Source of the DNA: Myxococcota bacterium
GTDB taxonomy: Bacteria; Myxococcota_A; UBA796; CAJQPC01
Assembly: GCA_036021505.1 (NCBI GenBank)
Contig: JAYXVV010000009.1
Coordinates: forward strand, 5,600-69,599
Direction of reading: 5' to 3'
Length of the DNA stretch: 64,000 nt
This document shows, piece by piece, positions 8,926-64,000 of the stretch. The position numbers were made by a program, and so were the translations under genes. Under the pieces are notes generated by a model. That model did no database searches. It saw only the letters and a program-made list of their open reading frames with translations, and was not told the origin of the DNA. Within the stretch, counting starts at the first letter, position 1. The number at the start of each line of letters is the position of its first letter.

Positions 8926-8931
8926 GCAGTG

Positions 8932-9019: not shown

Positions 9020-9049
9020 ATTTCACACTGTCGCTCGCTCTCCAAAGGG

Positions 9050-9136
9050 CGGAGAGGGTGGGATTCGAACCCACGGTGGGCGTGAACCCACAGTAGATTT
9101 CGAATCTACCGCCTTCGTCCACTCGGCCACCTCTCC
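9050..9136 (-). tRNA. tRNA-Ser (anticodon CGA)
   Basis: The reverse complement GGAGAGGTGGCCGAGTGG...GTAGA-TTCGAAA-TCTAC...GGTTCGAATCCCAC-CCTCTCC-G has a long variable arm. It is followed by CCC, so CCA is not fully encoded. Confidence 0.9.
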
Positions 9137-9142
9137 TCGTTC

Positions 9143-9646: not shown

Positions 9647-9756
9647 GCGGATCTGCCTGGCCCCAGCCCTGCGGATCTATCCGGTCGCACCTCTCTGTCA
9701 ATGCGCTGTTCGAAGACACCCCCAAAAGAAGCCCAAATCGGATAGGGGACTCCCCG

Positions 9757-10137: not shown

Positions 10138-10206
10138 CGCACTCGGGCTTGCAAGCGGAAGTTTCGGGTGTTGTGGTGTACACACCCCAACGGTGAGGAC
10201 CTCCCC

Positions 10207-12067: not shown

Positions 12068-13786
12068 TCATTTGGAACGCTCTTTTTTGGGAAACCCCAG
12101 GGTTTGGGGAGGGAGCACAGGTCTGGGGATATTCCTGTGCTCCCGCTTTCCCTTCTCGAAACCATCGAAGGACCCGGCCGAAAGGCCGGGTTTTTCACTC
12201 TGAATCAACCCGTAGCTCTTGAGTTTGTAGTGAAGAGTGGTGCGGGGAATCCCAAGTTCTCGAGCCATCGCGGAACGATTGCCTCCGAGTCGTCCAAAAG
12301 CTTCTGAAAGGATCGCCCGCTCCGTATCCTTCAGAACGCCCCGCCTCGACTGCAAGGACTCACGCTGAACCGCGAAGGGTGAAAAACAGATTGTGGATGC
12401 TGAGATTGTTGGACCCCCTAAAACAAAGGCTCGGGTCAGAACATTTCGAAGCTCCCGAACGTTGCCTGGAAAAGGGTGTCGAGCAAGCTTGTGCATGCCC
12501 GAGGGTGCCACATGCACAGGCCCTTTCATTTGACTGCAAATGTCGCTCACCAAGGGTTCAAGATCCTCCATGCGCTCGCGCAATGGTGGGAGCAGGACTC
12601 CCAGTACGGCGAGCCGAAAAAAGAGATCCTCTCGAAACCTGCCGGAGGCAACTTCCTGCTCCAGATCGCGATTGGTTGCCGCCACTACCCGAACCCTCGG
12701 GTAGGTCGGCTTCGCGCCCCCCACCCGACGAACCTCTCCGGTCTCTAAAGCACGCAACAACTTGGCCTGTGCGTGCAGGGGAAGCTCACCTACTTCATCC
12801 AAAAACAAGGTGCCTCCATCGGCGCGCTGAAAGGCTCCATCCCGCCGCTCCTTGGCATCGGTAAAGGCTCCTTTCTCGTGACCGAACAACTCGGACTCGA
12901 AAAGATTGTCCGCAATTCCTCCGCAATTCAATGCGACAAAAGGACCCTTTGAGCGACTGGATTCTATGTGAAGTCCACGTGCGGCAAGCTCTTTTCCGGT
13001 TCCGCTCTCTCCAACCAAAAGCACAGGCGCCGTGTGAGACGCCATGGCCCTTAGAATGCCGAAAAGCTGACGCATGGCTTGACTTGTTCCCTTCATCTCC
13101 CCAAAGCCCTCCGGATTGGACGAAGAGACGACAGCAACCTCACTTTGGATGCGACACCGAGACTGACCGATTTGAAATTCCTCACTGGGATAGAGGGGCA
13201 AGGTCGAGGAGACGAGGAGAGAGTCGACAAAACAGTGGCCCTGCGCGGGACTCAGGAGGGGACGACCTCTGGCAAATCGCAATTCGACATGATCCGGAAG
13301 CAAGCTGCTGTCCGAAATCACCACATCACTTCCCGGGGCCCCAAGAGTTTGGCGTCGGGCAGACAAGGTCCGTCGAGTGCCTTTTGCGGGACCGTCCAAG
13401 ATTTCCAAGGTCCATTGTTCCTGGGCGAGCTGAGTGTCCTGCACCACGACTGGAGGCAGTGTCGATTCCTTTGGGCGGTGGAGACCCGACAGAGTTGGAC
13501 GACTCTCCGTCTTTGGTGAGCCCACAAACTGGATCTCAAAGGGGCCAATTCTCAAGAGATCACCTTCCTCCAGAGAACGCCGCTTCTCCACACGCTCACC
13601 GCCAACAAATGTCCCGTGCCGGCTGCGATCCACCACGGTCCACTTGCCCGACCGACGAGCGAGAATGCAATGGGTGCGACTCACCCGATTTCCAGGGACC
13701 ACAATGTCGCAACTGTCAGAACGCCCCAAGAGCACCCGATCGCTTCGAAGCGGAATTTCACAAAGAGCCACAGCTCCACGTTTCAT
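12068..13786 (-). CDS. sigma-54-dependent transcriptional activator with two N-terminal FHA domains
   Basis: FHA1: LLGRSDSCDIVVPGNRVSRTHC...GTFVGGERV. A second FHA-like segment follows. AAA+ core GESGTGKE, GAFTDA (GAFTGA-type), a DEVGEL-type Walker B, and a C-terminal Fis-type HTH. The ATG at 13786 was chosen over the upstream TTG. Confidence 0.88.
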   Translation of the reverse strand: MKRGAVALCEIPLRSDRVLLGRSDSCDIVVPGNRVSRTHCILARRSGKWTVVDRSRHGTFVGGERVEKRRSLEEGDLLRIGPFEIQFVGSPKTESRPTLSGLHRPKESTLPPVVVQDTQLAQEQWTLEILDGPAKGTRRTLSARRQTLGAPGSDVVISDSSLLPDHVELRFARGRPLLSPAQGHCFVDSLLVSSTLPLYPSEEFQIGQSRCRIQSEVAVVSSSNPEGFGEMKGTSQAMRQLFGILRAMASHTAPVLLVGESGTGKELAARGLHIESSRSKGPFVALNCGGIADNLFESELFGHEKGAFTDAKERRDGAFQRADGGTLFLDEVGELPLHAQAKLLRALETGEVRRVGGAKPTYPRVRVVAATNRDLEQEVASGRFREDLFFRLAVLGVLLPPLRERMEDLEPLVSDICSQMKGPVHVAPSGMHKLARHPFPGNVRELRNVLTRAFVLGGPTISASTICFSPFAVQRESLQSRRGVLKDTERAILSEAFGRLGGNRSAMARELGIPRTTLHYKLKSYGLIQSEKPGLSAGSFDGFEKGKREHRNIPRPVLPPQTLGFPKKERSK

Positions 13787-13943
13787 CACCAAATTGGCCA
13801 CGCAATCCTCCTGCGCGGACCCCAACGAGGGTGCCTCTCCCTGAGCCCACGTCACCAGATTTTGCAAATGACATGCCAACCCCTTTGGGGGTTCTGTGTG
13901 CTGCGAAACGTCGATTTTTCGACACTCTGCTGTCGAGAACTGC

Positions 13944-23641: not shown

Positions 23642-25219
23642 TCAATTAAGCGCCTGTTCCACCCGATCCCTCAGTTCTGGGCTCTCGAATGGCTTAAAAA
23701 TGACAATCTCCGCGTGCTTCTCCAGAAACTCCTCAGCCTCGGGATTCTTGGCTCCACCCGTGAGAAAGAGAAAACACGAACCCAATTCAGGATGACTTCC
23801 CTTTACCCTTTCAAAGAGCGCACTCCCCGCTTCATCCGGGAGCGACAGATCGCAGAGAATTAGCGCTGGTGGCTGGGATTCGATCTGTTCCAGAGCCTCC
23901 TTGGCCGTGTGCGCTACCGTGATTTCCCCCAAACCCTTGAGCACTCTTCGAATCGCTCGCGTCATCGGGGCCTCGTCGTCCACCAAGAGGATTCGTGGCA
24001 GGTTTTCCTTCACAAGATCCGGCTCTTCATTCTCCTCGATTTCCTGCTGGAACTGCGTGGGCACAGGCAGCTGGACCTCGACACGTGTTCCCTCATTCAC
24101 TGAGGACGTCACCTGTATCTCTCCACCATGCCGCTGAAGAATGTCTCGACAGATGGCCAGCCCCAAACCCGAATGCCCCTGGTGTTCTCTCATGGTGAAA
24201 AACGGATCGAAGATGCGCGACTGCTGTTCTTCTGGAATGCCAGCCCCCCAATCCTGAACAAGGACCCGAACACGACCCGAATCGGTACTCGTTGAGACGG
24301 TCACCACATCGTTCGAACTCGGATTTTTAGCGTAGGCCTGAATTCCATTCAGGAGGATGTTGAGAAAGGCCTGTGCGAGTCGACCTGGGGAAGCGTTCAC
24401 TGGGGGACAATCCTGGAGTGACATCTCAATTTGCACCGCACCCGCCATCTGACTTCGCGCCATCTCGACGGCGGTCTTGAGTGCTTGATTGATGTCCAAG
24501 GGCATCCACTCATCCTCATCCGCGCGTTGAAATCCTTTGAGGTCTCCAACAATGTCCCGGATTCGACGCATGCCCTCCAGGCTTTCCGTAAGCATGTCTT
24601 TCATGTCTTGAAGGTTCTGCGGGTAGTAGGAGGCCTCTGCCTGTGCCTCCAGTTCCTCCACCCGATCGGCGGGCGCATGTTCCCTTGAAAGGGTCAGCGA
24701 CGTTTCAAGAAGGGCCTTGAGTTCCACGACGGAGAGCTGCAGTTCGTTGAGATTGGTCACCACCCAGGCTGCTGGATTGTTGATGGAGTGCGCCATGCCT
24801 GTCGCCAACTGACCCAGGGTTGCCAACTTCTCTCTCTCAATCAGATCCGCATGAAGCAACCAACTGCCCTCATCGCTCAGCAGGGAATCCAGTGGATCGC
24901 CCCCCACGACCTGGTGCGATCGACACACTGTCTCTGCATTTCCTGGGTCCGACAGGTCAGCGACTCCAGCCCGCCACAACGCAAGCAGCTGCTCCGTAGA
25001 CAGCCCTTCTGCACAGACCACCACCGGCAGTCCCGTCATCTGAAGGACAGCCCCCACCTCCAAGACCCCATCATGGAGGACGACGACGTCGATGGCCTCC
25101 TCCACCAAGACCTCCCCCATTCCCAGAAGCCCATCGACCTCAAAAACCTCGACGAACTCCGTCCATGCCACTCGGAGGGACAGAGAAGTTCGTATTTCCA
25201 GAATTTTCAGAGGTGTCAT
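23642..25219 (-). CDS. hybrid sensor histidine kinase/response regulator
   Basis: HisKA H-box LATGMAHSINNP. HATPase N/G boxes (NILLNGIQ, DWGAGI, GHSGLGLAI). C-terminal receiver ILLVDDE...ILCDLSLPD. The N-terminal receiver-like region is degenerate. Confidence 0.85.
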   Translation of the reverse strand: MTPLKILEIRTSLSLRVAWTEFVEVFEVDGLLGMGEVLVEEAIDVVVLHDGVLEVGAVLQMTGLPVVVCAEGLSTEQLLALWRAGVADLSDPGNAETVCRSHQVVGGDPLDSLLSDEGSWLLHADLIEREKLATLGQLATGMAHSINNPAAWVVTNLNELQLSVVELKALLETSLTLSREHAPADRVEELEAQAEASYYPQNLQDMKDMLTESLEGMRRIRDIVGDLKGFQRADEDEWMPLDINQALKTAVEMARSQMAGAVQIEMSLQDCPPVNASPGRLAQAFLNILLNGIQAYAKNPSSNDVVTVSTSTDSGRVRVLVQDWGAGIPEEQQSRIFDPFFTMREHQGHSGLGLAICRDILQRHGGEIQVTSSVNEGTRVEVQLPVPTQFQQEIEENEEPDLVKENLPRILLVDDEAPMTRAIRRVLKGLGEITVAHTAKEALEQIESQPPALILCDLSLPDEAGSALFERVKGSHPELGSCFLFLTGGAKNPEAEEFLEKHAEIVIFKPFESPELRDRVEQALN

Positions 25220-26806: not shown

Positions 26807-26870
26807 GGAGCCACTTTAGCGCAGGTGACGCCCCTTGGGATCCCCCAAAGAGGATAAGGGATCTCCAGCT

Positions 26871-28733
26871 ATGTCCACAAAAAGCACCCAACCCCCTGCA
26901 TTCGTAATCGGCACTGCGGGCCACATCGACCACGGTAAAACCTCCCTCGTCCGCTCAATTACCGGAAACGATTTGGACGTCTTGCCGGAAGAGAAAGAGC
27001 GGGGAATCACCATTGCCTTAGGCTTCACTCACAAACTCCTTGGGTCAGGTCGGCGATTCGCTTTTGTGGATGTACCGGGTCACGAACGACTCATACGGAC
27101 AATGGTCTCAGGCGCTTCAGGAATTGATGCGGTCCTATTTTGTGTATCGGCTGCTGAGGGCGTCATGCCGCAGACCCGCGAGCACTTGGACATCCTTCGC
27201 CTGTTGGGAATCACTCACGGGGTTGTCGCGCTAACCCACTGCGATCTGGTGGAAGAGGAGCTCGCTGAACTTGCCGAGGAGGAACTGAGAGAGCTGCTCA
27301 GTGATACTTTTTTAAGCGAGGCCCCCATCATCCGGACCTCGGCAGTCACAGGCGAAGGAATTCAGCTTCTTGAGGCCGCACTCGAAGCTCTTCCCTTGAA
27401 AGACCATGCGCCCGGAGACGACTACAGACTGCCCATTGACCGTGTCTTTGTGAAGAAAGGATTCGGAACGGTCGTCACGGGTACAAGCCTTTCAGGAGGG
27501 GTAAGCGAGGGAGAAGAGCTTGTGCTCCTGCCCGGTCGCGTGCGCGTCCGGGTCCGTGGAATTCAGGTCCATGAGGAATCCCGTAAGGCCGCATGGGCGG
27601 GTGAGCGTACCGCGCTCAATCTCGCTGGAGTGGAGGGACAAGAACTCAAGAGGGGAATGGTCGTGGCCTCTCCGGCCCTCGCCGAAGCGAGCGCTGTCCT
27701 GGATGTCTCTTACCAACACCTGGAGAGCGCCCCAGCGCTTCGTTCCGGTACGCGGGTTCGTCTGCTGATCGGCACCACCGAGGTCCTGGCAGTCACTGAC
27801 ATCATTACGGAAGCCTCGCCCCTGTTGCCCGGACAGCAGGGCTACCTCCAGCTCCGCTGTGAACAGCCCGTTTTGGCCCTCCCCAACGACCGCTTTATCC
27901 TCCGACTGGAATCCCCTCTGATCACTCTGGGGGGCGGGCAAATACTCGATCCATGGGCACCAAGGTTTCGAAGCAAGAACCGAATGCTTGCGCTCGCTGA
28001 GCTGGCGCGACTGGAAGCTGGCGAGCACCAGGTATTTGTGGAGAGAGCGGGCCCCGCTGGACTCCCTGACGATGTCGCAAAAAAGAGACTGGGATCCACT
28101 GCTGAAGGTCTCTGTGCCTTGGGCGATCGCAGGGTCACCCCACACCAACTCGATGCACTCATAGCTCGACTCCTCCGTGATTTGGAGAAGGAGCATCAGT
28201 CGCTGAGGCTGGCCCATGGCGTGCCGCGAAGAAGCCTTCGAAAAAGTGTGTTCTTGGAATTGAGTCCCTCCGCATTTGATCAACTCTTGATGCATGCTGC
28301 CGGACACGGGGGGCTTGTCGAGGAGGGACCAAGGGTGCGCCTCCCCGGTTGGGAGGTTCGCCTGGATGAATCCGAGCAAAAGGCCGCTGCTCAGCTTCTC
28401 GAAAGGCTTTCTGCAGCACAGTGGACCCCACCGCCACCGGAAGAAATCCGTCCTCAATGCTCCGATCCCGACGGGTTGATCGCCTATCTTGCAGCCGAGA
28501 AAAAGCTCTGGAAAATTGCGGGGCTGCTCTACAGCTCGGATGCAATCTCATCGCTCAAATCATCGGTTGTACAGATCCTTGAAGAGGAAGGCTCCCTCTC
28601 TCCAGGCCGCTTCAAAGAACTCACAGGACTGAGTCGAAAATCCGCCATTCCCCTTCTGGAATTTTTGGACAGCCAAGGCGTCACCAAGCGTTCTGGCGAA
28701 ACCCGAATCGCGGCTACATCATGTTCGCTGTGA
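26871..28733 (+). CDS. selB: selenocysteine-specific translation elongation factor
   Basis: G domain [28 protein letters not shown], followed by beta-barrel domains and C-terminal winged-helix repeats. The ATG at 26871 lies after AAGAGGA. Confidence 0.88.
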
Positions 28734-30249
28734 CCTCGTCCTCGTCGGTGTACGTCAACAGCATGACCGTCACATTGTCTCGGCCACCTCCCAAATGGGC
28801 CGCCTTGACCAGCTCCTGTACGCAGAGCTTCGGATCGTCATAGTGGTTGATGATGGCCTCCATGTCGGGATCGTCTACCTCTCCCCAGAGTCCATCTGAA
28901 CACATCATGATTTGGTCGCCTTGCTGGAGATCGACCCGGAAGATGTCGATCTCCACGTCCCGTTCGGTACCTACGGTCCGCAAAAGGATGTGGGAGTGGG
29001 GATGATTTTTCGCCTCTTCCTGACCGATTCGACCTTGTTCCACCAAGCGAGCCACCAGCGAGTGGTCTTTGGAAACCTGGTGAAGCTGTCCATCTCGAAT
29101 CAGGTAGGCTCGGGAATCACCCACATTCGCAACCAAGCCAATCCCGTTGTGGATCAAGCAAGACACCAGCGTGGTGCCCATGTCTGAGCCACGACGCTCC
29201 CCCTCGTCCTTGATGGCGTTGTTGGCCCTCTGAAAGGACTCATCGAAGAGATTTTCGAGCGACTCTGCTGTTGTTTTTTTGAGGCTCACAAAACGCTGTC
29301 GGGCTTGAGCACAGATGGTCTTGATGGCCATCTCGCTTGCCACCTCACCGGCCTCATGCCCGCCCATTCCGTCGGCAACCGCATACAGCCGAGAATTCTC
29401 GCCGAGCTCCACCCAGCCCCAGTTGTCCTCATTCAGAGTTCTTGCAAGACCCACATCCGACATCGCAGACATCCCCGACGGGGCCATCTTGTCTTCCAGC
29501 TCATTGAAGAGACGCTCAACAGCCCGACCGTAGCTTCTTGGACTGTCGTAGCCACCGTCTTCTGCTTTCTGGAGAAAGTCTCGCAGGGGGTTGTGGTTGA
29601 CCGGTGTGAACATTCGAAGCATCGAGGAGAGGTCACCGAGTTCTCTCGAGCGGCTGTCCTCTGGAACCGGAGTTTCCAGGAGGTGAGCGACCGTCGGATC
29701 AAAGAGCAAAAAGCGATCTTCAGAGCGGCGATAAACGAAGGAATGCCGTCCCATTCCCTCCAGACTCACACCGTGACGATGGAGGAAGGCCAGCATTCCT
29801 GCAAATCGCTGGGAGAGGTGGAGAACTCGACCCAGCTCAAACGGAGCCGGGAGAGTCACCATCAAGGACTCTCCCCGATACTGAACCACACTGCACAACT
29901 GGCCAGAGGCTTCAAAGACAACGTCAGGACGGAGGAGAGCAGGATGCTCCAGACCCCTCTCGTGGAAGGCGATGTGGCGGTCAAAGTTGGCCTGGTCCCA
30001 ACGAACGGACATCATGTACTGGCGCTTGGCGGGAATCGGCTCGCCACATGAGACGCATCGCAATTCGTCTCTTGGCGTGGCGTCGGAGCCGCACATCCAA
30101 CAATGTCGAGTCGACTTGTCCGAACGCTGATCATGAACCACATAGATCATCCGTCCCTCGCAGAGCCGCCTCAACGAGTCCACCACGAAATGCTCCCCAA
30201 TCGGGGTTCCGGGTGGAAACGGTGCCGGGCGGCCTTTCGCGCTACCCAT
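28714..30249 (-). CDS. pseudokinase-like domain with inserted zinc ribbon fused to PP2C Ser/Thr phosphatase
   Basis: C-terminal PP2C: AVADGMGGHEAGEVAS, DMGTT, GDSRAY, MCSDGLW, GGRDNVT. The N-terminal 250 aa are kinase-fold-like but lack HRD/DFG. CWMC...CVSC lies at aa 50-68. Confidence 0.8.
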   Translation of the reverse strand: MGSAKGRPAPFPPGTPIGEHFVVDSLRRLCEGRMIYVVHDQRSDKSTRHCWMCGSDATPRDELRCVSCGEPIPAKRQYMMSVRWDQANFDRHIAFHERGLEHPALLRPDVVFEASGQLCSVVQYRGESLMVTLPAPFELGRVLHLSQRFAGMLAFLHRHGVSLEGMGRHSFVYRRSEDRFLLFDPTVAHLLETPVPEDSRSRELGDLSSMLRMFTPVNHNPLRDFLQKAEDGGYDSPRSYGRAVERLFNELEDKMAPSGMSAMSDVGLARTLNEDNWGWVELGENSRLYAVADGMGGHEAGEVASEMAIKTICAQARQRFVSLKKTTAESLENLFDESFQRANNAIKDEGERRGSDMGTTLVSCLIHNGIGLVANVGDSRAYLIRDGQLHQVSKDHSLVARLVEQGRIGQEEAKNHPHSHILLRTVGTERDVEIDIFRVDLQQGDQIMMCSDGLWGEVDDPDMEAIINHYDDPKLCVQELVKAAHLGGGRDNVTVMLLTYTDEDEVTANMM

Positions 30250-48409: not shown

Positions 48410-48737
48410 TTCCCGATCTTTATCCCCAAGAAAGGGTCCTGAACCCTTGACACGAGGATTCTGACGGCTACATTCTCGCTACGGCACGCTTCGTGGTTGC
48501 ACCGAGCGGGTCGTTTTCAGCGCGGGTTGGTGAGCAAACCTTCCCCCTTGGTTGCCTTCTCCTCGCGTCTCGTTCCACGTGTCTTTACCTGGACACATGT
48601 CTACTTCCCCTTCGGAGCCTCTCCAAGGAGTGCCTTGAGCCCAACCGCTCAATCGGCAGCTGGTCCCCAGACAGACCTCCCCGTGCCCGTCGGCCGTGTC
48701 TCAGCCAAACCACAAGTCGACTCGACACACCACCATC

Positions 48738-50423
48738 ATGCAAGTCCGACCCGACAATCCGGTCATCGTTCAAGGTGACGGCAAAGTTCTCCTGGAAACC
48801 ACCCACTCGAGGTACGAGGAAGCGCGCGACTTTCTCGCACGCTTTGCCGAGCTGGAGGCGAGTCCTGAGCTCCTCCACACCTACCGAATCACTCCACTCT
48901 CTCTCTGGAATGCCGCCTGCTCCGGGATGACCAAAGACGATATTGTGGATCGCTTGCGTAGCCTCACCAAGTTCGACATCCCCCCAGACGTCCTCCAGAA
49001 CGTCTCGGATACGATCGAGCGCTATGGGCTGGTAAAACTCAAACCCCATCCCAATGATCCAGAGACCACCATTCGTCTGGAGTTCCACAACGCCTACGTT
49101 GCAAAACTCGTGAGCCAGGAGCCTTCGGTTCAGGAATTCCTGATGGAGGACGGGCGACGCAACTGGGCCATCCATGCAGGTCACCGTGGCATTTTCAAGC
49201 AGCGGATGCTCGCAGCGAACTGGCCTGTTGAAGACCTCGTAGGCTTCCTGCCCGGAGAGCATCTCGAAGTGAAACTTCGAGACACCATGCGAGGATCAGG
49301 CGGTCCTTTTGCGGTCCGACCCTACCAAGCGGAAGCGGGAGCACGATGGCACCTGATGGGTCTCCCCGCAGGCGGCCATGGCGTGGTTGTTCTTCCCTGC
49401 GGTGCAGGCAAGACAATCGTCGCTATGGAATCGATGCGACTGTGTCAGACCCACACCCTCATTCTGGCCACCAACGAAGCCGCAGTGAACCAGTGGGTTC
49501 GCGAGCTCATCGACAAAACCCACCTGACTGAAGACCAAGTCGGCGCCTACATGGGGACCAAAAAGGAAATCAAACCGGTCACCGTGGCGACCTATCAGAT
49601 CTTGACTTGGCGGCGCTCCAAGGACGCGGATTTCGAACATCTTCATCTCTTCGAAGACCACAACTGGGGACTCCTCATCTACGACGAGGTCCACCTTCTT
49701 CCGGCCCCTGTCTTTGGTGCAACAGCCACCTTGCAGGGTCGACGCCGGCTGGGCCTAACGGCCACCTTGGTTCGTGAGGACGGTCGTGAAGCCGACGTGT
49801 TCGCTCTCGTGGGTCCCAAACGCTACGATCTTCCTTGGCAAATGCTGGAGAGGGGCGGATTTATCGCCGAGGCCAACTGCCACGAGGTCCGGGTTCCTTT
49901 CCTGAATGGAGGCTACGAAAAATACGAGGCCTCGAATGAGCAAACCAAGTTCCGCTTTGCCTCGACCAACCCGAATAAAATGCCCGCGATCAAGACGCTG
50001 GTCGATCGACACCGAGGCGACAACATTCTCATCATCGGCACCTATCTTGAACAACTCGAGGCCATCGCTCGAAAGTTCCGTGCCCCACTGATCACAGGAA
50101 AGACCCCTCATCGCGAGCGAGATGTCTTGTTCAAAGACTTCCGAGAAGGGCGGTCCAAACTCTTGGTCGTGTCCAAGGTGGCCAACTTTTCCATCGATCT
50201 TCCAGATGCCAACGTGGCCATTCAAGTGTCTGGAACCTTTGGTTCTCGACAAGAAGAAGCCCAGCGTCTCGGCCGCATCCTTCGTCCCAAGAAGAAGGGC
50301 ACCAAAGCCCACTTCTACACCATTGTGACCTCTGAAACCAAAGAGCAGGAATTCGCACTCAAGCGCCAGCTCTTCTTGACTGAGCAGGGCTATCGATACT
50401 CCATCGAGACGCCCAACTCCTGA
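48738..50423 (+). CDS. XPB/Ssl2-type SF2 DNA repair helicase
   Basis: The N-terminus is a damage-recognition-like domain. Motif I LPCGAGKT, motif II DEVH, and the XPB-specific RED motif (TLVREDGRE). C-terminus FYTIVTSETKEQEF. Confidence 0.9.
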   Translation: MQVRPDNPVIVQGDGKVLLETTHSRYEEARDFLARFAELEASPELLHTYRITPLSLWNAACSGMTKDDIVDRLRSLTKFDIPPDVLQNVSDTIERYGLVKLKPHPNDPETTIRLEFHNAYVAKLVSQEPSVQEFLMEDGRRNWAIHAGHRGIFKQRMLAANWPVEDLVGFLPGEHLEVKLRDTMRGSGGPFAVRPYQAEAGARWHLMGLPAGGHGVVVLPCGAGKTIVAMESMRLCQTHTLILATNEAAVNQWVRELIDKTHLTEDQVGAYMGTKKEIKPVTVATYQILTWRRSKDADFEHLHLFEDHNWGLLIYDEVHLLPAPVFGATATLQGRRRLGLTATLVREDGREADVFALVGPKRYDLPWQMLERGGFIAEANCHEVRVPFLNGGYEKYEASNEQTKFRFASTNPNKMPAIKTLVDRHRGDNILIIGTYLEQLEAIARKFRAPLITGKTPHRERDVLFKDFREGRSKLLVVSKVANFSIDLPDANVAIQVSGTFGSRQEEAQRLGRILRPKKKGTKAHFYTIVTSETKEQEFALKRQLFLTEQGYRYSIETPNS

Positions 50424-50431
50424 AAACGCCC

Positions 50432-52660
50432 ATGTCCGAAGAAGTACAAGCACCAGCTCCCTCCTCCGATTCCTCTCCAAACCCACGCAGAAAACGCCGA
50501 CGGCGCCGACGCCGAGGGGGAGGAGAAGACAACGAGTCCGCCTCCACAGAGACCAACTCGCCTCGTCGAGGACGCCGAAGCCGACGTGGAACGCAGTCTG
50601 CTGATCCCAACACGACCCCAAGCATGCCATCGAGCGGGAAGAACCGTCGTCGACGTCGCTCTCGCCGTCGACGAGGAGCCCCTGTCTCAGGAATCGCCCG
50701 CCGTCGGGCGCTGAGCCGGTCGCAAGTTGAGGAACTTGAAGCCTACTTCACCCGACTCGATGATTCCCTTCTGGAGCTCATCTACAAAGGGATGGGAGGC
50801 CAACCCGGTCGCATCGACAAAAAAGAGCGCGTCGTGCAGCTCACCGTTCGAGCAATCGCCCAAGGCAGCCGCGTGGCCTCGATGCTCCGGGCTTGCCATG
50901 AGCGGGAGCGTACCGCGCTGGCCATCCTCATCCAGTGCGGCGGGCTCGCTCACAATGGTGGCTTTCTGCGAGAGCTGGTGCTCTCCTTAGGTGGACAGGA
51001 TCGCGAATGGGAAAAAGTGATGACCTCACTGGCCAACAAAGGCCTGGTTTTCTCTTCTGCCGCCCAAGATGACCATTTCTTCTACATGGTCCCCGAGCCG
51101 CTGGTGGAATTCCTTCTGCCGCACCTGACTGCTGAACTCAAGGTGCCGACGTTCCAGCACGAGGACATTCAGGTCCGAGAGCAGCGGCCCTTCTCTCCTC
51201 CACTGGACTTCTCGATCACCACGCTGTGTACCTACATCGATCAGAAGCCGCCGCGTCTTACCCAGCAACACGAGATCTACAAGACGCACAAAGAAGAAAT
51301 GGATGGATTCTTCAGCCAGCTCTGGGAAGCCGGGAGCGACCTTTTCCACTTTCACATCGACTTCTTGATGCAGCACGGTCTTGTCGAGCTTCGAGGCGAC
51401 AGCATCTCGGTGAACCGCCAGGTGGTGGAAGAATGGCTCAACATTGACCGGCAGGATCAGCGGGACCTGATTTTCCGAGCCTTGGACAAGAGCTTTCCCT
51501 ATGCCGAGTGGGCACTTTGGGCCGTTCATTCCGGACAAGGAGAGTGGGTCCCGGAGCAGCCTCTCTCCGCTCTCTACCGGCGATGGAAACGCGGTGAGGA
51601 ATGGCGCAAGAGGCTTCATGAGGGTGTTTTTGTTCCCCCGCGAAGCTCCGAGCGAGAGAGCTGGAGCTTTGCCCCGCTTGTTCGCTGCGGAATGCTCGAG
51701 TTGGGCGAATGGGGACAGGAGAAGTTCTATCGGTTGACGCCCCGAGCCCTCGCCATGCTCGAGCCTGCTGAGGACGATGGCTTTACTGCATTCTACCTCA
51801 CACCAAGCTTTGAAATCATGGCCCCCGCAGGATTGGCCCCGCAGCTGCTGTTCCGAATCGGTGAGCTCGGTGAGCTGACCGGTTGTGACCGGGCGAATAC
51901 CTACAGGATCAATGAGATCAACATTGAGTCCGCTCTGAGCAAGGGATGGCGCAGAGACGACATCCTGGACTTCCTGAGGGAGAACTCCCAGATCGGACTC
52001 CCTGAGAACGTTGAGCAGACCCTCCGAGGTTGGATGGGCTACCAGGGAGACGTGGAGTTCCACCAGGCCGTACTTCTCAGTGTGCACAACAGCCGAATTC
52101 GGAAACTTGAATCCAATCCGGCCCTGAAACCCTTCCTCCTGCACCGGTTTGTCCCCGGACTCTATGCGGTCGATCCAAGCAAAATGGAGGAAATCACCCA
52201 GATTCTCAACGAGACGGGCTTCCACCCCAGCCGCGAACTCAAACACTACCCCGGAAGCCCCACACAAGTGGCCTCTCGCGATCGCCTGCTCCAAATGGTG
52301 GCTGAGGCTCGAGCGACTTCGGAAGATCCCCTGGCCCGTGCTCAGGCTGCCGACACCCAACCCGAGGATCTGCATTGTGTTCCTGGAACAGGCAGGAAAC
52401 GCCCCAAACGCAAGAGTTCCAAGGCCCCTCGTGTGTCTCCGAGAGAGGCACGGCTTATCGCCAACCAGGCCATCACTACGGGCGCCGATCTCGAACTGCT
52501 CTACCTTGGACGGGATGGCAGTCGTGTCGCGAGTACAGTCAAACCCCAACGTCTGGCTGTAGCTCCAGACGGGAATGAGGTCATGGTTGGCCGAGACCTC
52601 AAGAAAGATGAACTGCGCACCTATCGCTTGACCAACATTGAGCGAATGCGTGCCCTGTAG
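50432..52660 (+). CDS. XPB-associated protein: Arg-rich N-terminus, XPB-N-terminal-like domain, WYL-like C-terminus
   Basis: It starts 8 nt after the XPB stop. aa 17-92 carry runs of R. aa 489-545, [44 protein letters not shown], parallel XPB YRITPLSLWNAACSGMTKDDIVDRLRSLTKFDIPPDVLQNVSDT. The C-terminus [16 protein letters not shown]...[13 protein letters not shown] is WYL-like. Confidence 0.7.
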
Positions 52661-52668
52661 GAGGCCCT

Positions 52669-52893
52669 ATGCCTGAGTCTGAGTCACGCTCTTTTGAACA
52701 AGCACTGGAGGCCCTCGAGAACCGCGTTCGAAAACTGGAGGGGGGCGACATGCCTCTCGAGGAAGCCCTCTCGCTCTTTGAGGAGGGAATCGAACTCACC
52801 CGAGAGTGCCACGAAAAACTGGATGCGGCCGACCAGAAAATTGTGGAACTCACTCGCGGTATGGACGAGGAGATTCTGGAGAGCGAGCGCTAA
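52669..52893 (+). CDS. xseB: exodeoxyribonuclease VII small subunit
   Basis: [45 protein letters not shown] lies before the ATG. It starts 8 nt after the upstream stop. Confidence 0.85.
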
Positions 52894-55800
52894 TCCTCCC
52901 GAGGATTGACGTGACCCGGTAACTCGGCACCCAAGTCCAAAACATCCACGTTTCTTCCACTGGAATCGAGAAAGAATCGAGAGCGACTGACTTGGTGCTC
53001 TGCGATGAACTGAGCCTGAGGAAAGTTCAACACCACTCTCGGAAACAGGTTTTGCTTGACGGTGACCATGACTGTTGGCTCGGCTTCCCACTGGGCCAGA
53101 TGCAAGGCCAGTTTCTGTTCGAGCGCCACAACCTCAGCCCGCAACTCCGCTCGCTGAGCGCAAAGTGTCTCGACGCGAGGGCGCTCCTCTGGAAGGCACT
53201 CCGCGAGGGCCTCGTGGTCAGGGAGTCCCCCGAGAAGATCGTGGAACTTGATCCGCTGTCTCCGGCGCGCCCCGAGTTCTTTCTGGAGGAACTCCACTTG
53301 CTCTGGCAAACCACCGACCCGCAGAACTGTGGGCGTCCACTGTGCGGAGCCGAGCTGACACACCACCGCTCCTGCTCGAGCACGAATCTGTCCCCCTGAG
53401 ACGACGCCAGGCTTTCGATCCGCAAGCAGGCGCTCCTCGGTAATGACCTCACAGTGAAGGAGCTCCTTCTGGACGAGCACAGAACCCTTGGCCTCCAGAG
53501 TGGCATTCCTCGCTAGACCCACCGTGATTTCTCCCCCGGCACGGACAATGCTTCCGGAATCCACACCGGAAACAACACCACCCCGAACCACCACATTTCC
53601 CCCTGCCTCGATGGTAGCGCCCTCAACCACCTCACCGACCTCTACATCATCCGGGCAAGACACCTCAAAACCGGGGAGAACCGACCCTGAAATCTTTACA
53701 GAGCCCTGCGCTACGCGGACATGACCCGTGCGGTAGTCCACGTCCCCGTCAATCACGAGAAGCTCGACCACATCCATGAAGGCACCTCGGACCGTCAGAA
53801 CACCGTCCCGAGCGGCATAGGCCTCGGATTCCCGAACCACGACCCCAGCTCCAAACTCGACAGCCCCGTCTGCGCCGTCTCTGGCCTCGATCACCTCGCC
53901 GGTAACCGTCCTGCCCGCGACCCCCCGGGTGGGATCCATGATGTGAGCGAGCAGTTCCCCTTCTTTGACCTCCAAAAAGCTGTTCTGCTCTCGAAAATCA
54001 ATCCGTCCAAAAGCCCCTCTTTCTCCCGCTTGAACCGCAGATTCCAGTTCCACCTTGAGGCGACCGTCTCGGCCGTGTTTGGGAAGCGTACCTCTTGCCA
54101 CGCGGAGGTTCTCCTGAGGAGACCACTGGCGAGCTGCTGCCCGGCGACCCGACTGCACTGCCCGCTCCAAAAGCGCCTCTTTCTCCACCCCATGTGACTC
54201 CAAGACAGCCACCAAATCTGCCGATTCAACCGCTTCTCCGCCCAAGCGTTGAGGGTAAATGTCCATGTAGGCGGAGAGCCGACTGTCGTTGAACCGAATG
54301 CCTTTTTCCACCCAAAGTTCCAGGCTTTCTGTTCGAGCGATTCCAAACCCCCCCTGTTCCGTCACCCTGCCCCGAGCCACCTCGATTCGTCCGTAGACCT
54401 CCACGACAATCTCTCCGGCGTCCTCATCCCACCTCAGACCGTCTTTGAGCTGGAATTGGAATGCATGCACCCCTCGTTCTGGAGGAATCGTCTTTCCAAG
54501 CACATTGAGCCCCATCTCGGGGAGCACTGGAGGGACAATCCGACCGAAACGATCCCCAGCGAAGACACAGGTGTTCAGCCGATCTTCAAGAAGCTCGTAT
54601 GCCCCATCCGCTCCCTCCTGAGCTTTCCGACTTTGGGCCACGACAACATCGCGACACACCCTCGTTTGGTCCGTTGCCTCACGGAGTCCCTCGGCTAAGG
54701 CGTTGTCATCCACAACCGATGGATCCACGCCATGCCGAAGCAACTGCTCCCGAAGATCGGACAACGCCGTCGCTTCGCCATCCATTCGATATGGCCAAAT
54801 GTCCATCCGAACCTCATGACCATCCTCAGAGATCCGAACGCCTGGGAGAACACTGGCCCCTTCTTCCCCAAGAATTGGCTCACCATAAACTTCCGCTTGC
54901 GCCCACAATCCATCCGGAGAGCCCCTCGATCCCGAGCCCACTCGGATTCGCGTCTCCTCTACCGTGGTCTGAGGGCGGATCAGTCGCCCGTCCACCGTCT
55001 TGCCCGGTATTCCCTCCACATGCGGCACAAATCGAGCGAAAATCTCTCCCGGAAAAACCCCACATTCACCGTGCCAATCTTTGACGGGATGGCCATTTCT
55101 TCCCTCGATGGGAGGCACCCCCACACCCACCTCAAAATCCCAATGAATTCCGCCCCGGTTCTCGACGTCATCCAAGGCAGCCTGCAGCTTTTCTCTGGGA
55201 ATGAGTGACTCGTCGAAACCTTGGTTCACGAGAGCTGAACAAAGCTCATCTGCGTTGATCCGTTCCCCAGAGCTGTGCCTCGCGACGATGTCCATTGAAA
55301 GCCGCATGCCATCAGCGGATACATAGATTCCTGGCTGAACCATGACTCTCGATCCATCCACAAATGGGCGACCGTATACCGTCGCAACCACAAGGTCCTC
55401 CCCCACCCTCTCGCAGCCCGACTCCACATTCACCTTGGCGGCCTTCACGGGCTGTCCGCCCGGTATTTCAGCCCCGAACACCGAGCGACCCGATACCGGT
55501 TGACGCTCCGGTACAATGCGCACGACTGGATCCCCAGGGAAAACAATCGCCCCCTCACTCGGCTGGAGAGCTTCCAACACCCCGTCTTTTCCATCGACGG
55601 GCTCTCGACCACAAGCCACCTCGACATGCCACTGGGGAGACTCACTCTCCCATGCAAGTCGGAGGGCTTCAGAAAGTCTTTCCTCCTGCAGAAACTCCTC
55701 TTGGACACCCAGCGCAAGCACCTGCTCTACCAACTCTTTGTGCGCAATTCTTCGCCCATCGGCTCGAGCAGGAAACACATCCATCATGAGTCGAAAATCC

Positions 55801-58457
55801 GAGGGACTCAATCGGAACCCTGGAACAACTCGAACCTCGAGACCGTTGACTTCTGCCCGACCGTACACGCTTGAATGCACTGCCCTACCATCCTCGGAAA
55901 GTTGGCAATGCTGCTTGGCTTGCAAAGCCATGCCCACCTCTTGCAAGTCCGGGAGAAGCGCTCGCCCCTCCAAATCGAAGCCCGGTTCTGGCGGAATCCT
56001 GGCATTGACCTCCGCAATGCAATCACCAGGAAACACAACGGTCGGTCCCGGGGAAACATGACGTGTCACCTCCCAATCCTCTCCGGGAGAGGGCTGCCGC
56101 CCATAGGCCACCAAGACCCCCTTCAAAATGTTTCCTCGAGAGGTGGCAAGCGCATGGGCGATGGCTTCACGGTCCACACAAGCTTCAATGATCCCGGAAT
56201 TTCGGAGCACAGAAACCAGTTGCTCCACCCCCGTGAATGCCCCCGATGAACTTTCTGGAAAGATGTCCATTCGACACGACTGCCGCGACTCGTCCACGGA
56301 AAGAGCGGACTCCACCTCCATCCGTATGCGCAGATCCCCAGGCGGACCTTGCTCGCTCACAACACGGGCCATGCCATAGGCTTGGGAAACAAGGCTCTGC
56401 CCCTGATCCGGCGACATGCAAAAGTCCCCAGCCATCAGCGAGATTTTCCGGGGTGAATACGGACTCACAATCGGCTCTCCTCGCAGAGTCCTCCCTGGCT
56501 TTCCCGGCTCTCCAGGGTGAATGTGCGCGATGCGGTCTCCTGGAAATACTGGAAACCCCGTTGAGAGCCCAGCCATCTCCAAGGTTGCATCCGTCGGATT
56601 CTCCGGTTGCCTCGCCTGACCCACCACAACATCGACTGTTGACTTCTGGCGCAGGGCTTGAGCAATTCGTTTTTTGTTGAGGCACTCCTCAACAAACCCC
56701 TCCTCGAGCAGAACCCCCAGAAGAGCCTCCAGGGAGACAGGTTGGCCACCAATCCGCTTCTGAAACACCCGAAGACGCAGGGTCTGCTCTTGTTCGTCCT
56801 CGGACCACCCCTGCTCGACGGAAACCCCCTTTTTGTTGATCCGAACCTGCCCGTAGGTGGTTGCGATCACCCTCCCATCTTTCTCGACACAGCCCTTGCC
56901 CACACGAAACCGTTCGCCAGCACTCGAGGACGCATCCGCAAGGATGCGCTCTCCGAGCACACTCATTCCCGGCTCGGCAGGCTCAGCCTGGTCGACTTGA
57001 GCGAGTTCATCTCCCGGAAAAGCGGCGGTCACTCCAGTGACCGGGACAGGTCGAAACTCGGCATCCCAAGCCTCGACAGGCGGCCGCCCGACGGCCACCA
57101 GGCAATTCTCAAGCAACGTACCGCTGCGAATTGCTGCCGCCATTCCACGACGGAGCCCCCCTTCATCGATGAACTCGGCGACAATTCCATGATCCTCGAG
57201 CCAGCCTAAAACCTCTTCTTCCTGAAGTGCCTCACCGTCCGACCCCATGGGCGGGAGATCGACAAACGCCGAGAGTCCGTCGGCGGAGATTCGAACCGCA
57301 GGCTCCAAAAAAAACGAGTCTCCTTTACGCCGCAGAGAACCCGCCCCTGTGGCCACGACACGAACCTTGTCGCGGCTCAGGCTGAGCCCATCTCCAAAAG
57401 CGAGCTCAGCCGACTCCACACGTTCACGCGCCGCCACCACCTCGCCAAAAAGTCCCATTCCATCTCGTGCAGCCTGCGCTGGCCTCTGCATGAGGACTTC
57501 CTCCCCCGCGTGCACAAAGCTTCCCACTTCTCGAGCAAGTGCAAGGCGCTGTGGGGTCCCGTGAAGCGGTGGAAGAGATCGTGCTACGACCACGTTTTCG
57601 ACCACGTCATTGTCACTCCAGGCCTGTTTCACAGCCGCTCGAATGTTCTCCAGATTCACGCAGGGTTCGGCGATCTGGAGACCTGCCAAGATGTCTCGAA
57701 TTTGCACCACGGTGACCGGCCCACGACCCGAAACAGTCGGCCAGATGTTCATTCGAACCTCTCCCCGGTCCGCATCCAGGTTGAGGCCTGAAACCACCTC
57801 GACCTCTCCGACCGGCGTCTGACGCACGCGTCCGTATCGGGTGGCATAAATCCTGCCGTCCTCCAGGCGGCAGCCAGGCCCCGGCTGCGCCTCCTGTGAG
57901 GCTTCATCCACATCGCCGTCGATGGGATTTCCGAAGACATCGCGACCGGGCCGAGCCTCCGAACGAGGCTCCCACTCCCCGATCAAACTTCCCGCCACCA
58001 CGGCCACCGATTCCGTTTCCTCGACCAGCCGGACACCGCCCACAATTGCTTGCGTTGGCTCTTCTGCAAGAGCAACAGGAGTCTGCCGGTCCATCTCCCC
58101 TTCTGCGAAACCCTCCAACACCCCTGCAATGGCCTCCCGGTTCACGCCCACCACAACACCGGCGAGAGAAAGCTGACGCGTAACCGTTCCCACGGAGGGC
58201 TTTTGAGCCTCTTTGGGGCAGTCAATCTCTTGGATGACAACAACCCGGTGGTCCTCGCTGAGAGCAAAGGTCAAGCGGGCCTCCACAAACCGGAGGCCCA
58301 CATGAAACTGCCCCTTCCTCGACCGCAGCACCTCCAGTTCGTCCACCTCTCGATAGAGGAGCTCTGCAGCGCCCTCGAGGGCCTCACTCTCGTTCTTCGC
58401 ACGCACCCAACACTTGCGCGGCTTTCGTTCGGGTTCTAGCGCTTTAAAACCGTCCAC
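52890..58457 (-). CDS. giant DUF342/FapA-like protein (1855 aa) with nine tandem FapA-N-type modules
   Basis: The C-terminal about 300 aa have the DUF342 core: a Gly/Val-rich beta-helix ([21 protein letters not shown]...[13 protein letters not shown]...[27 protein letters not shown]) followed by a coiled coil. Upstream lie nine modules of about 165 aa. GTG start after GGTGAGG. Confidence 0.8.
53778..58325 (-). repeat. protein-level tandem array: nine diverged modules of about 165 aa
   Basis: The anchor strand xRMDIxP starts at aa 52(degenerate), 233, 395, 559, 727, 888, 1051, 1215 and 1394 (nt 58304, 57761, 57275, 56783, 56279, 55796, 55307, 54815, 54278). Each is followed by a helical segment, a vFPGD-type motif, G..G..v.G..I and a..vYGr. 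Confidence 0.75.
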
Positions 58458-58508
58458 TCCACCTCACCGGTAGACCCGCGAAAAAAGGCTTTTGAGGCAG
58501 CCTTCGGA

Positions 58509-58931
58509 TCAGACCCCCTCCATTACTTTACCCCAGACCGCATTCGCCGACATCACGCCGATGATCGCGGAGATGATTCCAAGCTGGAGAATGGCTCCAA
58601 GAACCAACCGATTGCCCTCCGTCGCAGCGGTCTCTTCCAGCGCCGGCCGAATCATCCGTTTCCCAACAATCTCCATGGGCGCCCAGAGCAACAGGGACAA
58701 CCCAAGCCACCAGGTTGTCAGGGGATACTGCATGGCGTGCCACAGGTACAGACCCGCGAGCAAAATGACGGGTCCCACAATCCGAATCGATACGGTCTGG
58801 AGAATGTCCAGAACTCTTCTTGAACCTTCTTTTTTACCACCGCCTGCAACAGCGAGGACCAACTGCAGAAACAGGAGCCCAAAGATCAGGTATCCTAAGT
58901 GTTTATGGAGGTGATGCATTCCTTCTAACAT
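58509..58931 (-). CDS. small integral membrane protein (4 TM)
   Basis: Four hydrophobic helices. It lies directly upstream of, and co-oriented with, the giant gene (51-nt gap). No family was recognised. Confidence 0.55.
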   Translation of the reverse strand: MLEGMHHLHKHLGYLIFGLLFLQLVLAVAGGGKKEGSRRVLDILQTVSIRIVGPVILLAGLYLWHAMQYPLTTWWLGLSLLLWAPMEIVGKRMIRPALEETAATEGNRLVLGAILQLGIISAIIGVMSANAVWGKVMEGV

Positions 58932-59065: not shown

Positions 59066-59818
59066 ATGTTTGAAACTGTTGGCAAAAATCAGAAGATAAA
59101 CCGCCGTAGACAGGCAGGTTCTCTGGCCCTCGCTTTGTTGATGTTGGTGTCCTCAGGCGCATTCATGATCATTGGGGGCAGCCAGCTGGTTGAGGAGCTG
59201 GAGTTCGAGGAGCCTGTTGAGGTTGTCTTGTTCGAAGACCTTGCTCCCCCTCCACCTCCTCCCCCACCACCTCCTGCCTCAACCTCCCAACAACAAGAGG
59301 AGGAGGAAGAAGAGGAAGAAGAGGAAGAAGAGGAAGAGGAAGAAGAAGAAGAAGAGGAGCTCGAGGAAGAAGAGGTCGAAGAGCTTGAAGAAGAAGTTCC
59401 TGAAGAGATTGTCGAGGAAGAAAAGGTTGTCGGCGTCGAGGGCGGCGTCGAGGGCGGCGTCGAAGGTGGCGTTGTTGGTGGCGTCATTGGTGGTGTCGAG
59501 GGTGGCGTGATTGGTGGTCAACTCGGCGGAACAGGTGTCCGTGCCGTGCACTGGTCTGAGGTGCGCGTAAAGCGGCGACCCGAGGTGCGTTACCCCCGAA
59601 ATGCCCAGAGCATGAATTTGGGCCCTGTAGATTGTCGCGTTCGCATCTTCATCGACGCTCGTGGTCGACCTTATGAAGTGAAGATGGAAAGCTGCCCCAA
59701 CATCTTCCGAGAGTCTGCTGAGCAGGCCGCTATGAAGTACCGTTTTTACCCCATGAAAGTTGCCGGAGAGGCCGTGCCTTGTCAGTTCGTTCTCTCCATT
59801 AAGTACCGGCTGCGATAG
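59066..59818 (+). CDS. tonB: TonB-family energy transducer
   Basis: N-terminal TM anchor, a Pro10 run, a Glu-rich spacer and a C-terminal TonB domain (YPRNAQSMNLGPVDCRVRIFIDARGRPYEV...AMKYRFYP). Confidence 0.8.
   Translation: MFETVGKNQKINRRRQAGSLALALLMLVSSGAFMIIGGSQLVEELEFEEPVEVVLFEDLAPPPPPPPPPPASTSQQQEEEEEEEEEEEEEEEEEEEEELEEEEVEELEEEVPEEIVEEEKVVGVEGGVEGGVEGGVVGGVIGGVEGGVIGGQLGGTGVRAVHWSEVRVKRRPEVRYPRNAQSMNLGPVDCRVRIFIDARGRPYEVKMESCPNIFRESAEQAAMKYRFYPMKVAGEAVPCQFVLSIKYRLR
59246..59530 (+). repeat. low-complexity coding repeats in tonB (CCN)10, (GAR)21+, (GTC/GGC-GAG-GGY-GGC)n
   Basis: It encodes PPPPPPPPPP, 21 consecutive Glu followed by further E-rich sequence, then V/I-E/V/I-G-G tetrapeptide repeats. 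Confidence 0.85.
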
Positions 59819-63112: not shown

Positions 63113-64000
63113 GTGAAAGTCCTTCTCTCTGCCTTCTTTCTTCTTCCCGCTTGCAACTGGGTCAGCCAGGCTGACATCGACGACAGGCTCACCCAACTCG
63201 ACGATGATGGAGACGGCTTCACGCGAGATGGAGGCGGTGATCCTGCCCTTGTGGATTGCGACGATACCGATCGCGACATCTACCCCGGAGCCGAGGAAAT
63301 CTGGTACGACGGCGTCGACTCCAACTGTCTGGGCGACGACGACTACGATCAAGATGGAGACGGCTTTGCCTCTGCTGTCGAGAGTGCCGACGGCACCGAC
63401 TGCGATGACCTTGAGGCGAGCACCAACCCCGACGCCACCGAGACCTGGTACGATGGGGTCGACTCCGACTGCTTGGGCGACGACGACTACGACCAAGATG
63501 GCGACGGATTCGCATCCGCTGCGGAGAGTGCCGACGGCACCGACTGCGACGATCTCGAGGCGAACACCAACCCCGCGGCCACCGAGACCTGGTACGACGG
63601 AGTCGACTCCGACTGCCTGGGCGACGACGACTACGACCAAGATGGTGACGGGTTCCTGGCCGCCGATGAAGCCCCAGGGGGTACAGACTGCGACGATCTC
63701 GAGGCGAGCACCAACCCCGCGGCCACCGAGACCTGGTACGACGGAGTCGACTCCGACTGCTTGGGCGACGACGACTACGACCAGGATGGCGACGGTTTTG
63801 CCTCCGCTGCCGAGACCACCGACGGCACCGACTGCTATGACATCGACGCGGAGGCCTACCCGGGGGCCATGGAGGATCTGAGCGAGTCCCTCATCGATCA
63901 CGACTGCGATGGCTCAGCCAGCAGCGTTGGGCTCTATTGGGACAGCTCTCTCCAGTGGAACGGTGTGGGTTCGATACGCTTGGGGGAGACCAGCGACCGC
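63113..64000 (+). CDS. lipoprotein with MopE-like 'putative metal-binding motif' repeats (3' end outside window)
   Basis: This ORF is not in the track because it has a GTG start and no stop in the window. My own translation is VKVLLSAFFLLPAC..., then repeated DCDD..NP.A.E.WYDGVDSDCLGDDDYDQDGDGF units. The frame is open to base 64000. Confidence 0.7.
   Translation, partial: MKVLLSAFFLLPACNWVSQADIDDRLTQLDDDGDGFTRDGGGDPALVDCDDTDRDIYPGAEEIWYDGVDSNCLGDDDYDQDGDGFASAVESADGTDCDDLEASTNPDATETWYDGVDSDCLGDDDYDQDGDGFASAAESADGTDCDDLEANTNPAATETWYDGVDSDCLGDDDYDQDGDGFLAADEAPGGTDCDDLEASTNPAATETWYDGVDSDCLGDDDYDQDGDGFASAAETTDGTDCYDIDAEAYPGAMEDLSESLIDHDCDGSASSVGLYWDSSLQWNGVGSIRLGETSDR
63254..63829 (+). repeat. 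four tandem 144-nt (48-aa) coding repeats, plus a partial fifth
   Basis: Units begin at aa 48, 96, 144 and 192 of the ORF (DCDD...DGT). The copies are highly similar at the nucleotide level. Confidence 0.85.

Follow-up and report, generated by a model that had tools for sequence, protein, structure and literature searches.

A 64,000-nucleotide stretch of a contig from a Myxococcota bacterium (JAYXVV010000009.1, positions 5,600 to 69,599 of the forward strand; hereafter the window) encodes a giant protein of 1855 amino acids (aa) that belongs to the DUF342/FapA family and carries nine FapA_N modules in tandem ahead of a single β-solenoid. Its architecture, namely a conserved head, eight FapA_N modules of an extension type, one FapA_N module of the canonical type, the solenoid, a helical hairpin and a small β domain, is intact, old and constrained in length. 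The features of the gene, in window coordinates, are as follows.

52890..58457, minus strand: whole gene for the DUF342/FapA-family protein (1855 aa), a single intact open reading frame (ORF) with its stop codon at 52890-52892
58269..58457, minus strand: N-terminal leader, aa 1-63, the conserved head, outside the matches of the FapA_N module profile
57783..58268, minus strand: FapA_N module 1, aa 64-225, extension type, with RVVVIQEID as its first strand (module profile)
57297..57782, minus strand: FapA_N module 2, aa 226-387, extension type, the most divergent module (module profile)
56805..57296, minus strand: FapA_N module 3, aa 388-551, extension type (module profile)
56301..56804, minus strand: FapA_N module 4, aa 552-719, extension type, its last strand preceded by a short insertion (module profile and AlphaFold2)
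55818..56300, minus strand: FapA_N module 5, aa 720-880, extension type (module profile and AlphaFold2)
55329..55817, minus strand: FapA_N module 6, aa 881-1043, extension type (module profile and AlphaFold2)
54837..55328, minus strand: FapA_N module 7, aa 1044-1207, extension type (module profile)
54345..54836, minus strand: FapA_N module 8, aa 1208-1371, extension type (module profile and AlphaFold2)
54300..54344, minus strand: 15-aa insert between modules 8 and 9, aa 1372-1386, a gap in the module profile matches
53769..54299, minus strand: FapA_N module 9, aa 1387-1563, canonical solenoid-adjacent type (module profile and best Pfam stretch)
53304..53768, minus strand: β-solenoid, the FapA/DUF342 core, aa 1564-1718 (PF03961 and AlphaFold2 β-helix)
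53085..53303, minus strand: helical hairpin or coiled coil, aa 1719-1791 (AlphaFold2 helices at model residues 512-534, 540-546 and 552-584)
52893..53084, minus strand: C-terminal small β domain, aa 1792-1855 (AlphaFold2 strands at model residues 590-634; the PF03961 match reaches aa 1830)

The protein was analysed with Pfam, NCBIfam, PADLOC, self-BLASTP, AlphaFold2 and Foldseek against the PDB. Its assignment to the DUF342/FapA family is secure, because the two Pfam profiles that an earlier note on this DNA had proposed as a check, FapA_N (PF20250) and the FapA β-solenoid (PF03961), both matched above their gathering scores. FapA_N matched in 10 stretches N-terminal to the solenoid (E = 4.6e-129, 427.2 bits against a cut-off of 27), the best of which (aa 1388-1557) spans positions 4-176 of the 178 in the profile. 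The solenoid profile, for which the cut-off is 31 bits, gave a single match at aa 1566-1830 (E = 1.4e-45, 156.5 bits). The nine tandem modules that the earlier note had read from the letters were recovered as nine complete copies, with pairwise identities of 17-35%, by a profile built from the modules; the scores of this profile are partly circular, since it was made from the same modules, whereas the Pfam result is independent. The landmark motifs quoted in that note were each found at exactly the residue given. One of them had been misassigned, in that HVGLRFVEA at about aa 52, taken for the first strand of module 1, sits in the separate 63-aa leader. Self-BLASTP of the giant protein detected no internal repeats, because the modules are too diverged for it, and profile methods are therefore needed. 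An origin of the array by doubling, with modules 1-4 matching modules 5-8, is not visible in the module identity matrix.

Neighbouring modules follow one another directly or after a single residue, except at the 15-aa insert between modules 8 and 9. A gap of 14-15 aa lies at this same place in the window protein and in its homologues P0003, P0030 and P0031, and the end of module 8 together with the insert is predicted to form a β-hairpin (GRVTE..G.G...TE; AlphaFold2 strands at model residues 149-182). Module 9 contains an invariant loop, QAGE.GAFGR.DF.E (columns 1476-1490), that modules 1-8 lack. The same contrast extends across the family, where the motif GxxD[FY][RK]E occurs in 86 of 179 solenoid-adjacent modules as against 1 of 387 other modules, and where the median module length is 181 aa for the former and 165 aa for the latter. 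These differences in motif and length show that the FapA_N module comes in two subtypes, a canonical one next to the solenoid and an extension one. Multi-module proteins are taken here as those with at least two abutting, linkerless FapA_N modules and the GxxDFRE loop in the last module alone, an arrangement that the giant protein shows.

AlphaFold2 models were made for aa 1208-1855 and for modules 4-6; a paralogue-enriched alignment for structure prediction was built from non-overlapping three-module frames. The mean predicted local distance difference test score (pLDDT) and the predicted template-modelling score (pTM) were 85.8 and 0.49 for the former segment, and 89.6 and 0.51 for the latter; the only segment of low confidence is the module 9 loop. 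Each modelled module is predicted to consist of a β-α-α-β subdomain followed by a β-rich subdomain. In the core, the model places a β-helix at about aa 1552-1714, then a helical hairpin (aa 1719-1791) and lastly a small β domain, in agreement with the β-helix, coiled coil and short C-terminal domain that had been proposed from the sequence.

The ORF at 52890-58457 is intact on the minus strand, as the earlier note had it. Its product, of about 200.7 kDa and acidic (isoelectric point about 5.0), carries neither a transmembrane segment nor a signal peptide and, having no hydrophobic segment, is cytoplasmic. The gene starts with GTG, with the purine-rich sequence GGTGAGGTGGA ahead of the start. 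Residues 2-17 are kept in the orthologues and locus L028 begins with the same GTG-encoded N-terminus, which indicates that the long start, giving 1855 aa, is right and that the database call of 1838 aa (P0001) is too short. The guanine-cytosine skew of the plus strand at window positions 54001-58000 is strongly negative, -0.18 to -0.24 over the giant gene where values in the vicinity are about -0.05 to -0.12, because the coding strand is G-rich (Gly, Val and Glu make up 33% of the residues).

An artefactual or decaying gene, that is, an assembly duplication, a chimera or a gene truly split by frameshifts, is extremely improbable. The observation that speaks for it is the 1.47-Mb long-read contig L024, in which the giant locus is called as five genes (5400-10972) and neighbouring genes are affected too. 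Over 5573 nt, however, this locus keeps its colinearity while the frame switches four times, and the genes for the XPB helicase, a PPDK-like protein and IspA are likewise split or truncated there. Given this colinearity and the unchanged length of the locus, and because neighbouring genes are also broken, the splits are sequencing indels typical of uncorrected long reads and not real frameshifts, which settles the frameshift check that the earlier note had called for. The polished L024 assembly is rich in frameshifts, and its gene calls are thus unreliable for length. In addition, eight further full-length orthologues of 1855-1863 aa come from independent metagenome assemblies of several samples, and their conservation pattern is consistent with the fold. 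The giant gene contains no DNA repeat of module length, so the array is not an assembly duplication; the copies are strongly diverged, at the pairwise identities given above, as had been stated earlier. For practical purposes, an artefact is excluded.

The modules correspond by position between distant members of the clade. The best match in the window protein has the same ordinal position for 8 of 9 modules of P0003 (46% identical overall), for 7 of 9 of P0031 (about 30%), and in part for P0030. This correspondence in P0003 and P0031 indicates that the array predates their divergence, and the nine-module array is thus ancient and fixed in a small environmental clade.

Conservation and indels were assessed in an alignment of seven orthologues that are 44-78% identical overall to the window protein, and only 8 gap columns in total were found over the 1855 residues. 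Against the orthologues at L022 and L023, the giant protein shows 46% identity with 0.4% gap columns. Most genes of the same syntenic block are 63-93% identical to their counterparts at these two loci, whereas ExbD1, which is also 46% identical to that of L022, has 11.8% gap columns. The giant gene is the fastest-diverging one of the block, and yet its product is nearly invariant in length, at 1855-1863 aa.

The substitutions are distributed unevenly along the protein. The solenoid is its best-conserved part, with 73-96% identity to these orthologues and 57% to P0031. The leader shows 62-94% identity to the same orthologues and 48% to P0031, the latter value being above that of any of modules 1-8, and module 9 shows 50-85%. 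Conversely, with the orthologues of 44-47% overall identity, the values fall to 23-53% in modules 1-8 and to 23-30% in module 2. Both ends are thus conserved far better than modules 1-8.

The place of the protein among DUF342 proteins was determined with a module-profile search of 1.84 billion representative proteins (threshold E ≤ 0.001), which gave 7309 matches; the best 150 of these were classed by architecture with our own module (N) and solenoid (S) profiles, and the counts below refer to those 150. The forms N2S (54 of 150, about 620-700 aa), N3S (50 of 150, about 770-880 aa), N4S (13 of 150, about 940-1070 aa) and N5S (14 of 150, about 1080-1300 aa) together account for 131 of the best 150 representative clusters, which overturns the premise, stated in the earlier note, that a DUF342 protein has one N-terminal module. 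Longer forms are represented by one N7S protein (P0033, 1481 aa), one protein with six or more modules (P0045, 2204 aa), three N9S proteins and one fragment without ends that has at least 11 modules (P0028). A further 5 have two or more solenoids, mostly as concatemers of three to seven whole N+S units, of up to 3620 aa, and 8 are other fragments without a solenoid. The members of the former group, P0038 (3620 aa), P0034, P0065, P0069 and P0051, have two to seven solenoids each, and most of them consist of tandem FapA_N plus solenoid units with a small domain between; such whole-unit repetition is a different route of enlargement from the stacking of N modules.

Nine modules are thus the rare long end of a continuum and not a unique architecture. 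The survey of lengths and domain counts suggested in the earlier note bears out the rarity of nine-module forms, with 3 N9S proteins in the best 150 of 7309, and removes any uniqueness, because forms with two to at least 11 modules are already in the databases, which goes part of the way towards the refutation that the note itself had named. Its description of the architecture as unusual is accordingly toned down to that of a rare extreme of a modular series, one that is common in the databases and of which no description was found in the literature searched. A profile scan of genome contigs returned only distant relatives with one to few modules and no close orthologue, and a metagenome scan returned two further loci.

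The expansions are independent and differ in age. Identity between modules of the same protein reaches 93% in P0045 and 70% in P0033, compared with at most 35% in the window protein, and P0045 and P0033 show recent amplifications in unrelated lineages, so that module stacking is still going on in the family. The window protein shares with other multi-module DUF342 proteins a linkerless stack of extension-type FapA_N modules ahead of one canonical module and the solenoid; it differs from them in that its array is near the top of the size range, old and length-invariant across the clade. The comparison with single-module DUF342 proteins (PF20250 plus PF03961, about 450-580 aa) is similar: the C-terminal 470 residues of the window protein form a complete canonical unit, 25-31% identical to them, whereas its eight extra extension modules and 63-aa head make it about four times as long. 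The DUF342/FapA family is widespread in bacteria, as the 7309 representative clusters matched by the module profile attest, and the extension subtype has been stacked many times over in independent events, in 2 to at least 11 copies. The subtypes, the stacking and the length-held array together offer a handle on the purpose of the N-terminal module, which may be to set distance or to bind multivalently.

A sequence search of the PDB found no related solved structure, and Foldseek against the PDB with the models gave nothing significant. The resemblances that were seen below significance are of three kinds. The β-rich half of the FapA_N module superposes on the fold of bL27 and of the N-terminal domains of the exosome proteins Rrp4, Rrp40 and Csl4, with a template-modelling score of up to 0.72 (target-normalised) and a probability of 1.0; the Foldseek E-value is about 0.03, the identity is 11-21% and the module lacks RNA-binding features, which makes this a resemblance of fold and not membership of the family. 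A sub-threshold Pfam match to ECR1_N was also found at aa 187-213 of the giant protein. The solenoid gave sub-threshold matches to the C-terminal β-helix of MinC (NCBIfam E = 0.059, PDB profile E = 0.025, Foldseek E = 6.5), although the giant protein lacks the MinC N-terminal domain and no MinD/ParA-type gene was found in the window. Matches of the solenoid to other right-handed β-helix proteins (FwdC, CAP/CARP) were weak and below significance. For the helical hairpin at aa 1719-1791, Foldseek returned weak structural matches to the arm of seryl-tRNA synthetase. Bactofilin (DUF583) was not among the Pfam families matched by the whole protein at E ≤ 1.

A small membrane protein is encoded directly upstream of the giant gene.

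58509..58931, minus strand: gene upstream in the same orientation, encoding a membrane protein of 140 aa with 3-4 transmembrane helices predicted from hydropathy

The product matches no Pfam family, and neither it nor the giant protein matches the anti-phage models of PADLOC. In 8 of 8 orthologous loci of the clade, a gene of this kind (133-148 aa) lies 33-51 nt upstream on the same strand, and it was found in none of the other DUF342 loci that were fetched. It diverges fast too, with 38-84% identity. The protein is therefore a candidate operon partner or membrane anchor. Between the two genes (window 58458-58508, minus strand), a 7-bp hairpin is followed by UUUUUU, and another hairpin overlaps the Shine-Dalgarno-like sequence; the hairpin and U-run fold no more stably than shuffled sequences do (z = -0.71), and a promoter and terminator scan returned no promoter and nothing else relevant.

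The reading that fits best, which we hold tentatively and at somewhat less than an even chance, is that of a cytoplasmic strut or scaffold of fixed length. It is the combination of conserved ends, fast-drifting modules that are linkerless and free of indels, and a stripped module subtype that favours it. In the C-terminal unit, the protein would have the end that works or self-associates in all DUF342 proteins, and the conserved N-terminal head would provide another specific contact. The main part of modules 1-8 would be to hold these two ends a set distance apart, their surfaces drifting fast and indels not being tolerated, and the 4-transmembrane protein encoded upstream would be the most likely membrane partner. 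The near-absence of indels fits the scaffold or molecular-ruler idea of the earlier note, which thereby gains indirect support from the invariance in length, and the idea itself is still conjectural. A narrower version, in which the eight extension modules form a fixed-length intracellular rod that runs from a membrane anchor to the self-associating β-helix end and spaces an envelope-associated or polar structure, seems unlikely; its anchor would be the 4-transmembrane protein, if co-transcribed, or a partner of the N-terminal head. If this version is true, the extension module would be a stackable unit by which length is naturally tuned across the whole DUF342 family, from 1 to at least 11 modules per protein. 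With a strut, the series would also be a modular length standard of a kind rarely seen in the bacterial cytoplasm; if the strut is wrong, the protein would be a large repeat-domain scaffold of ordinary interest. The likeness to known ruler proteins (FliK, YscP and phage tape-measure proteins) is one of evolutionary signature alone, with length kept while the sequence drifts. There is no relation to them in sequence or domains in Pfam or NCBIfam, including the T3S4 substrate-specificity-switch domain of FliK and YscP, which gave no match in either database, and the giant protein is predicted to be cytoplasmic with globular modules, whereas rulers are secreted as extended helical proteins.

Several observations weigh against a fixed-length strut. 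Each module keeps its own invariant residues across the orthologues, which position-specific binding sites explain as well as a pure spacer does, and the scarcity of indels may be no more than a consequence of compact domains whose loops are short. The pTM values are only 0.49-0.51, such that in the relative orientation of its modules the predicted array may be a rigid rod or beads on a string. The adjacency of the membrane-protein gene is weak evidence of partnership, because synteny within the clade extends over all 25 kb of the region; the syntenic block is kept even at the P0031 locus. Finally, no experimental work on multi-module DUF342 proteins was found in the literature searched.

Another reading, possible but doubtful, is that of a multivalent docking platform. 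All nine modules would bind a client, the same one throughout or a different one each, the protein would bring signalling or assembly factors together at high concentration, and the number of sites would matter and not the length. Positional orthology and module-specific invariant residues that persist down to about 30% identity point to it, as does the bL27 and Rrp4-Csl4 N-terminal fold seen in the β-rich module half (template-modelling score up to 0.72, E about 0.03), a fold that acts as a contact domain in its complexes. The closest one- and two-module relatives, moreover, are encoded among PilZ, response-regulator, GAF-HisKA, EAL-HDOD and MCP genes. However, modules 1-8 are the fastest-evolving parts of the protein (23-53%, in orthologues of 44-47% overall), in contrast to the conserved ends. 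The GxxDFRE loop conserved in solenoid-adjacent modules is absent from modules 1-8, and no candidate clients are encoded nearby.

That the giant protein is a flagellar assembly factor, a larger orthologue of Vibrio FapA with recruitment to the flagellated pole and a necessary part in forming the flagellum, is quite improbable. The giant protein does match Pfam families named after FapA, and associations of fapA with flagella have been published for other bacteria. In many bacteria, fapA lies in the sigma-28 sub-module of flagellar operons (PMC11607428). In PMC8789113, canonical FapA is cited as localising to the pole in Vibrio and as being required for flagellation, and HubP as recruiting FapA in Vibrio vulnificus (Park et al. 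2019). Vibrio FapA is defined by this HubP-dependent polar localisation, by binding of dephospho-EIIA(Glc) and by the flagellation requirement. Conversely, no flagellar, FlhF/FlhG, sigma-28, chemotaxis or MinD/ParA gene was found among the approximately 45 annotated ORFs of the window, nor in stretches of 20-25 kb surrounding four orthologues (L022, L023, L024 and L030), and within that range the giant gene is neither in nor next to a flagellar, sigma-28 or FlhFG cluster. The closest single-module relatives, 25-31% identical, occur in non-flagellar signalling contexts. The flagellar or polar link raised in the earlier note is thus unsupported by the gene context.

The remaining genes around the locus are those of the syntenic block. 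Divergent from the membrane-protein and giant genes are genes for TonB, ExbB, two ExbD proteins, IspA and TlyA, the TonB-like gene being followed in order by ExbB and the two ExbD genes. In the TonB-like protein (window 59066-59818, plus strand), a TonB_C domain at aa 173-249 is accompanied by 12 prolines in a row, an unbroken stretch of about 30 glutamates and a GGVEGGVEGGV repeat. At about window 63200-64000 (plus strand) and running off its end, tandem Asp/Cys-rich repeats of about 47 aa occur, with the consensus TDCDD..A..NP.A.E.WYDGVDSDCLGDDDYDQDGDGF; in the orthologous loci they form a Cu-binding_MopE protein of about 640 aa, and spurious long ORFs overlap them in other frames and on the opposite strand.

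Downstream, xseB, a Helicase_C_3/WYL protein gene and an XPB-like helicase gene converge on the giant gene. The 76-codon xseB (exonuclease VII small subunit; window 52663-52893, plus strand) ends in a stop codon (52891-52893) that overlaps the stop codon of the giant gene (52890-52892), so that no terminator would fit between these convergent genes; L022, L023 and L030 show the same close packing. Window 48696-52660 (plus strand) encodes the XPB/ERCC3-like helicase (575 aa), which has partial similarity to the PbeA models of PADLOC, and then the 742-aa protein with Helicase_C_3 and WYL domains, a pair that is conserved at 87-93% identity in the orthologous loci.

Elsewhere in the window, the bacterial small signal recognition particle RNA and two tRNA genes (8812-9136, minus strand) adjoin dnaX (6882-8765). 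The minus strand also has genes for a PilT-like T2SSE ATPase (1547-2599), an FHA-containing sigma-54 activator (12068-13879), a hybrid histidine kinase (23642-25219) and a PP2C phosphatase (28714-30249). Such a gene content, with the MopE-type Cys/Asp repeats and 58% GC, is reminiscent of Myxococcota or Bradymonadia-like bacteria. A gene for SelB, the selenocysteine-specific elongation factor, lies at 26835-28733 (plus strand), and the organism therefore probably makes selenoproteins.

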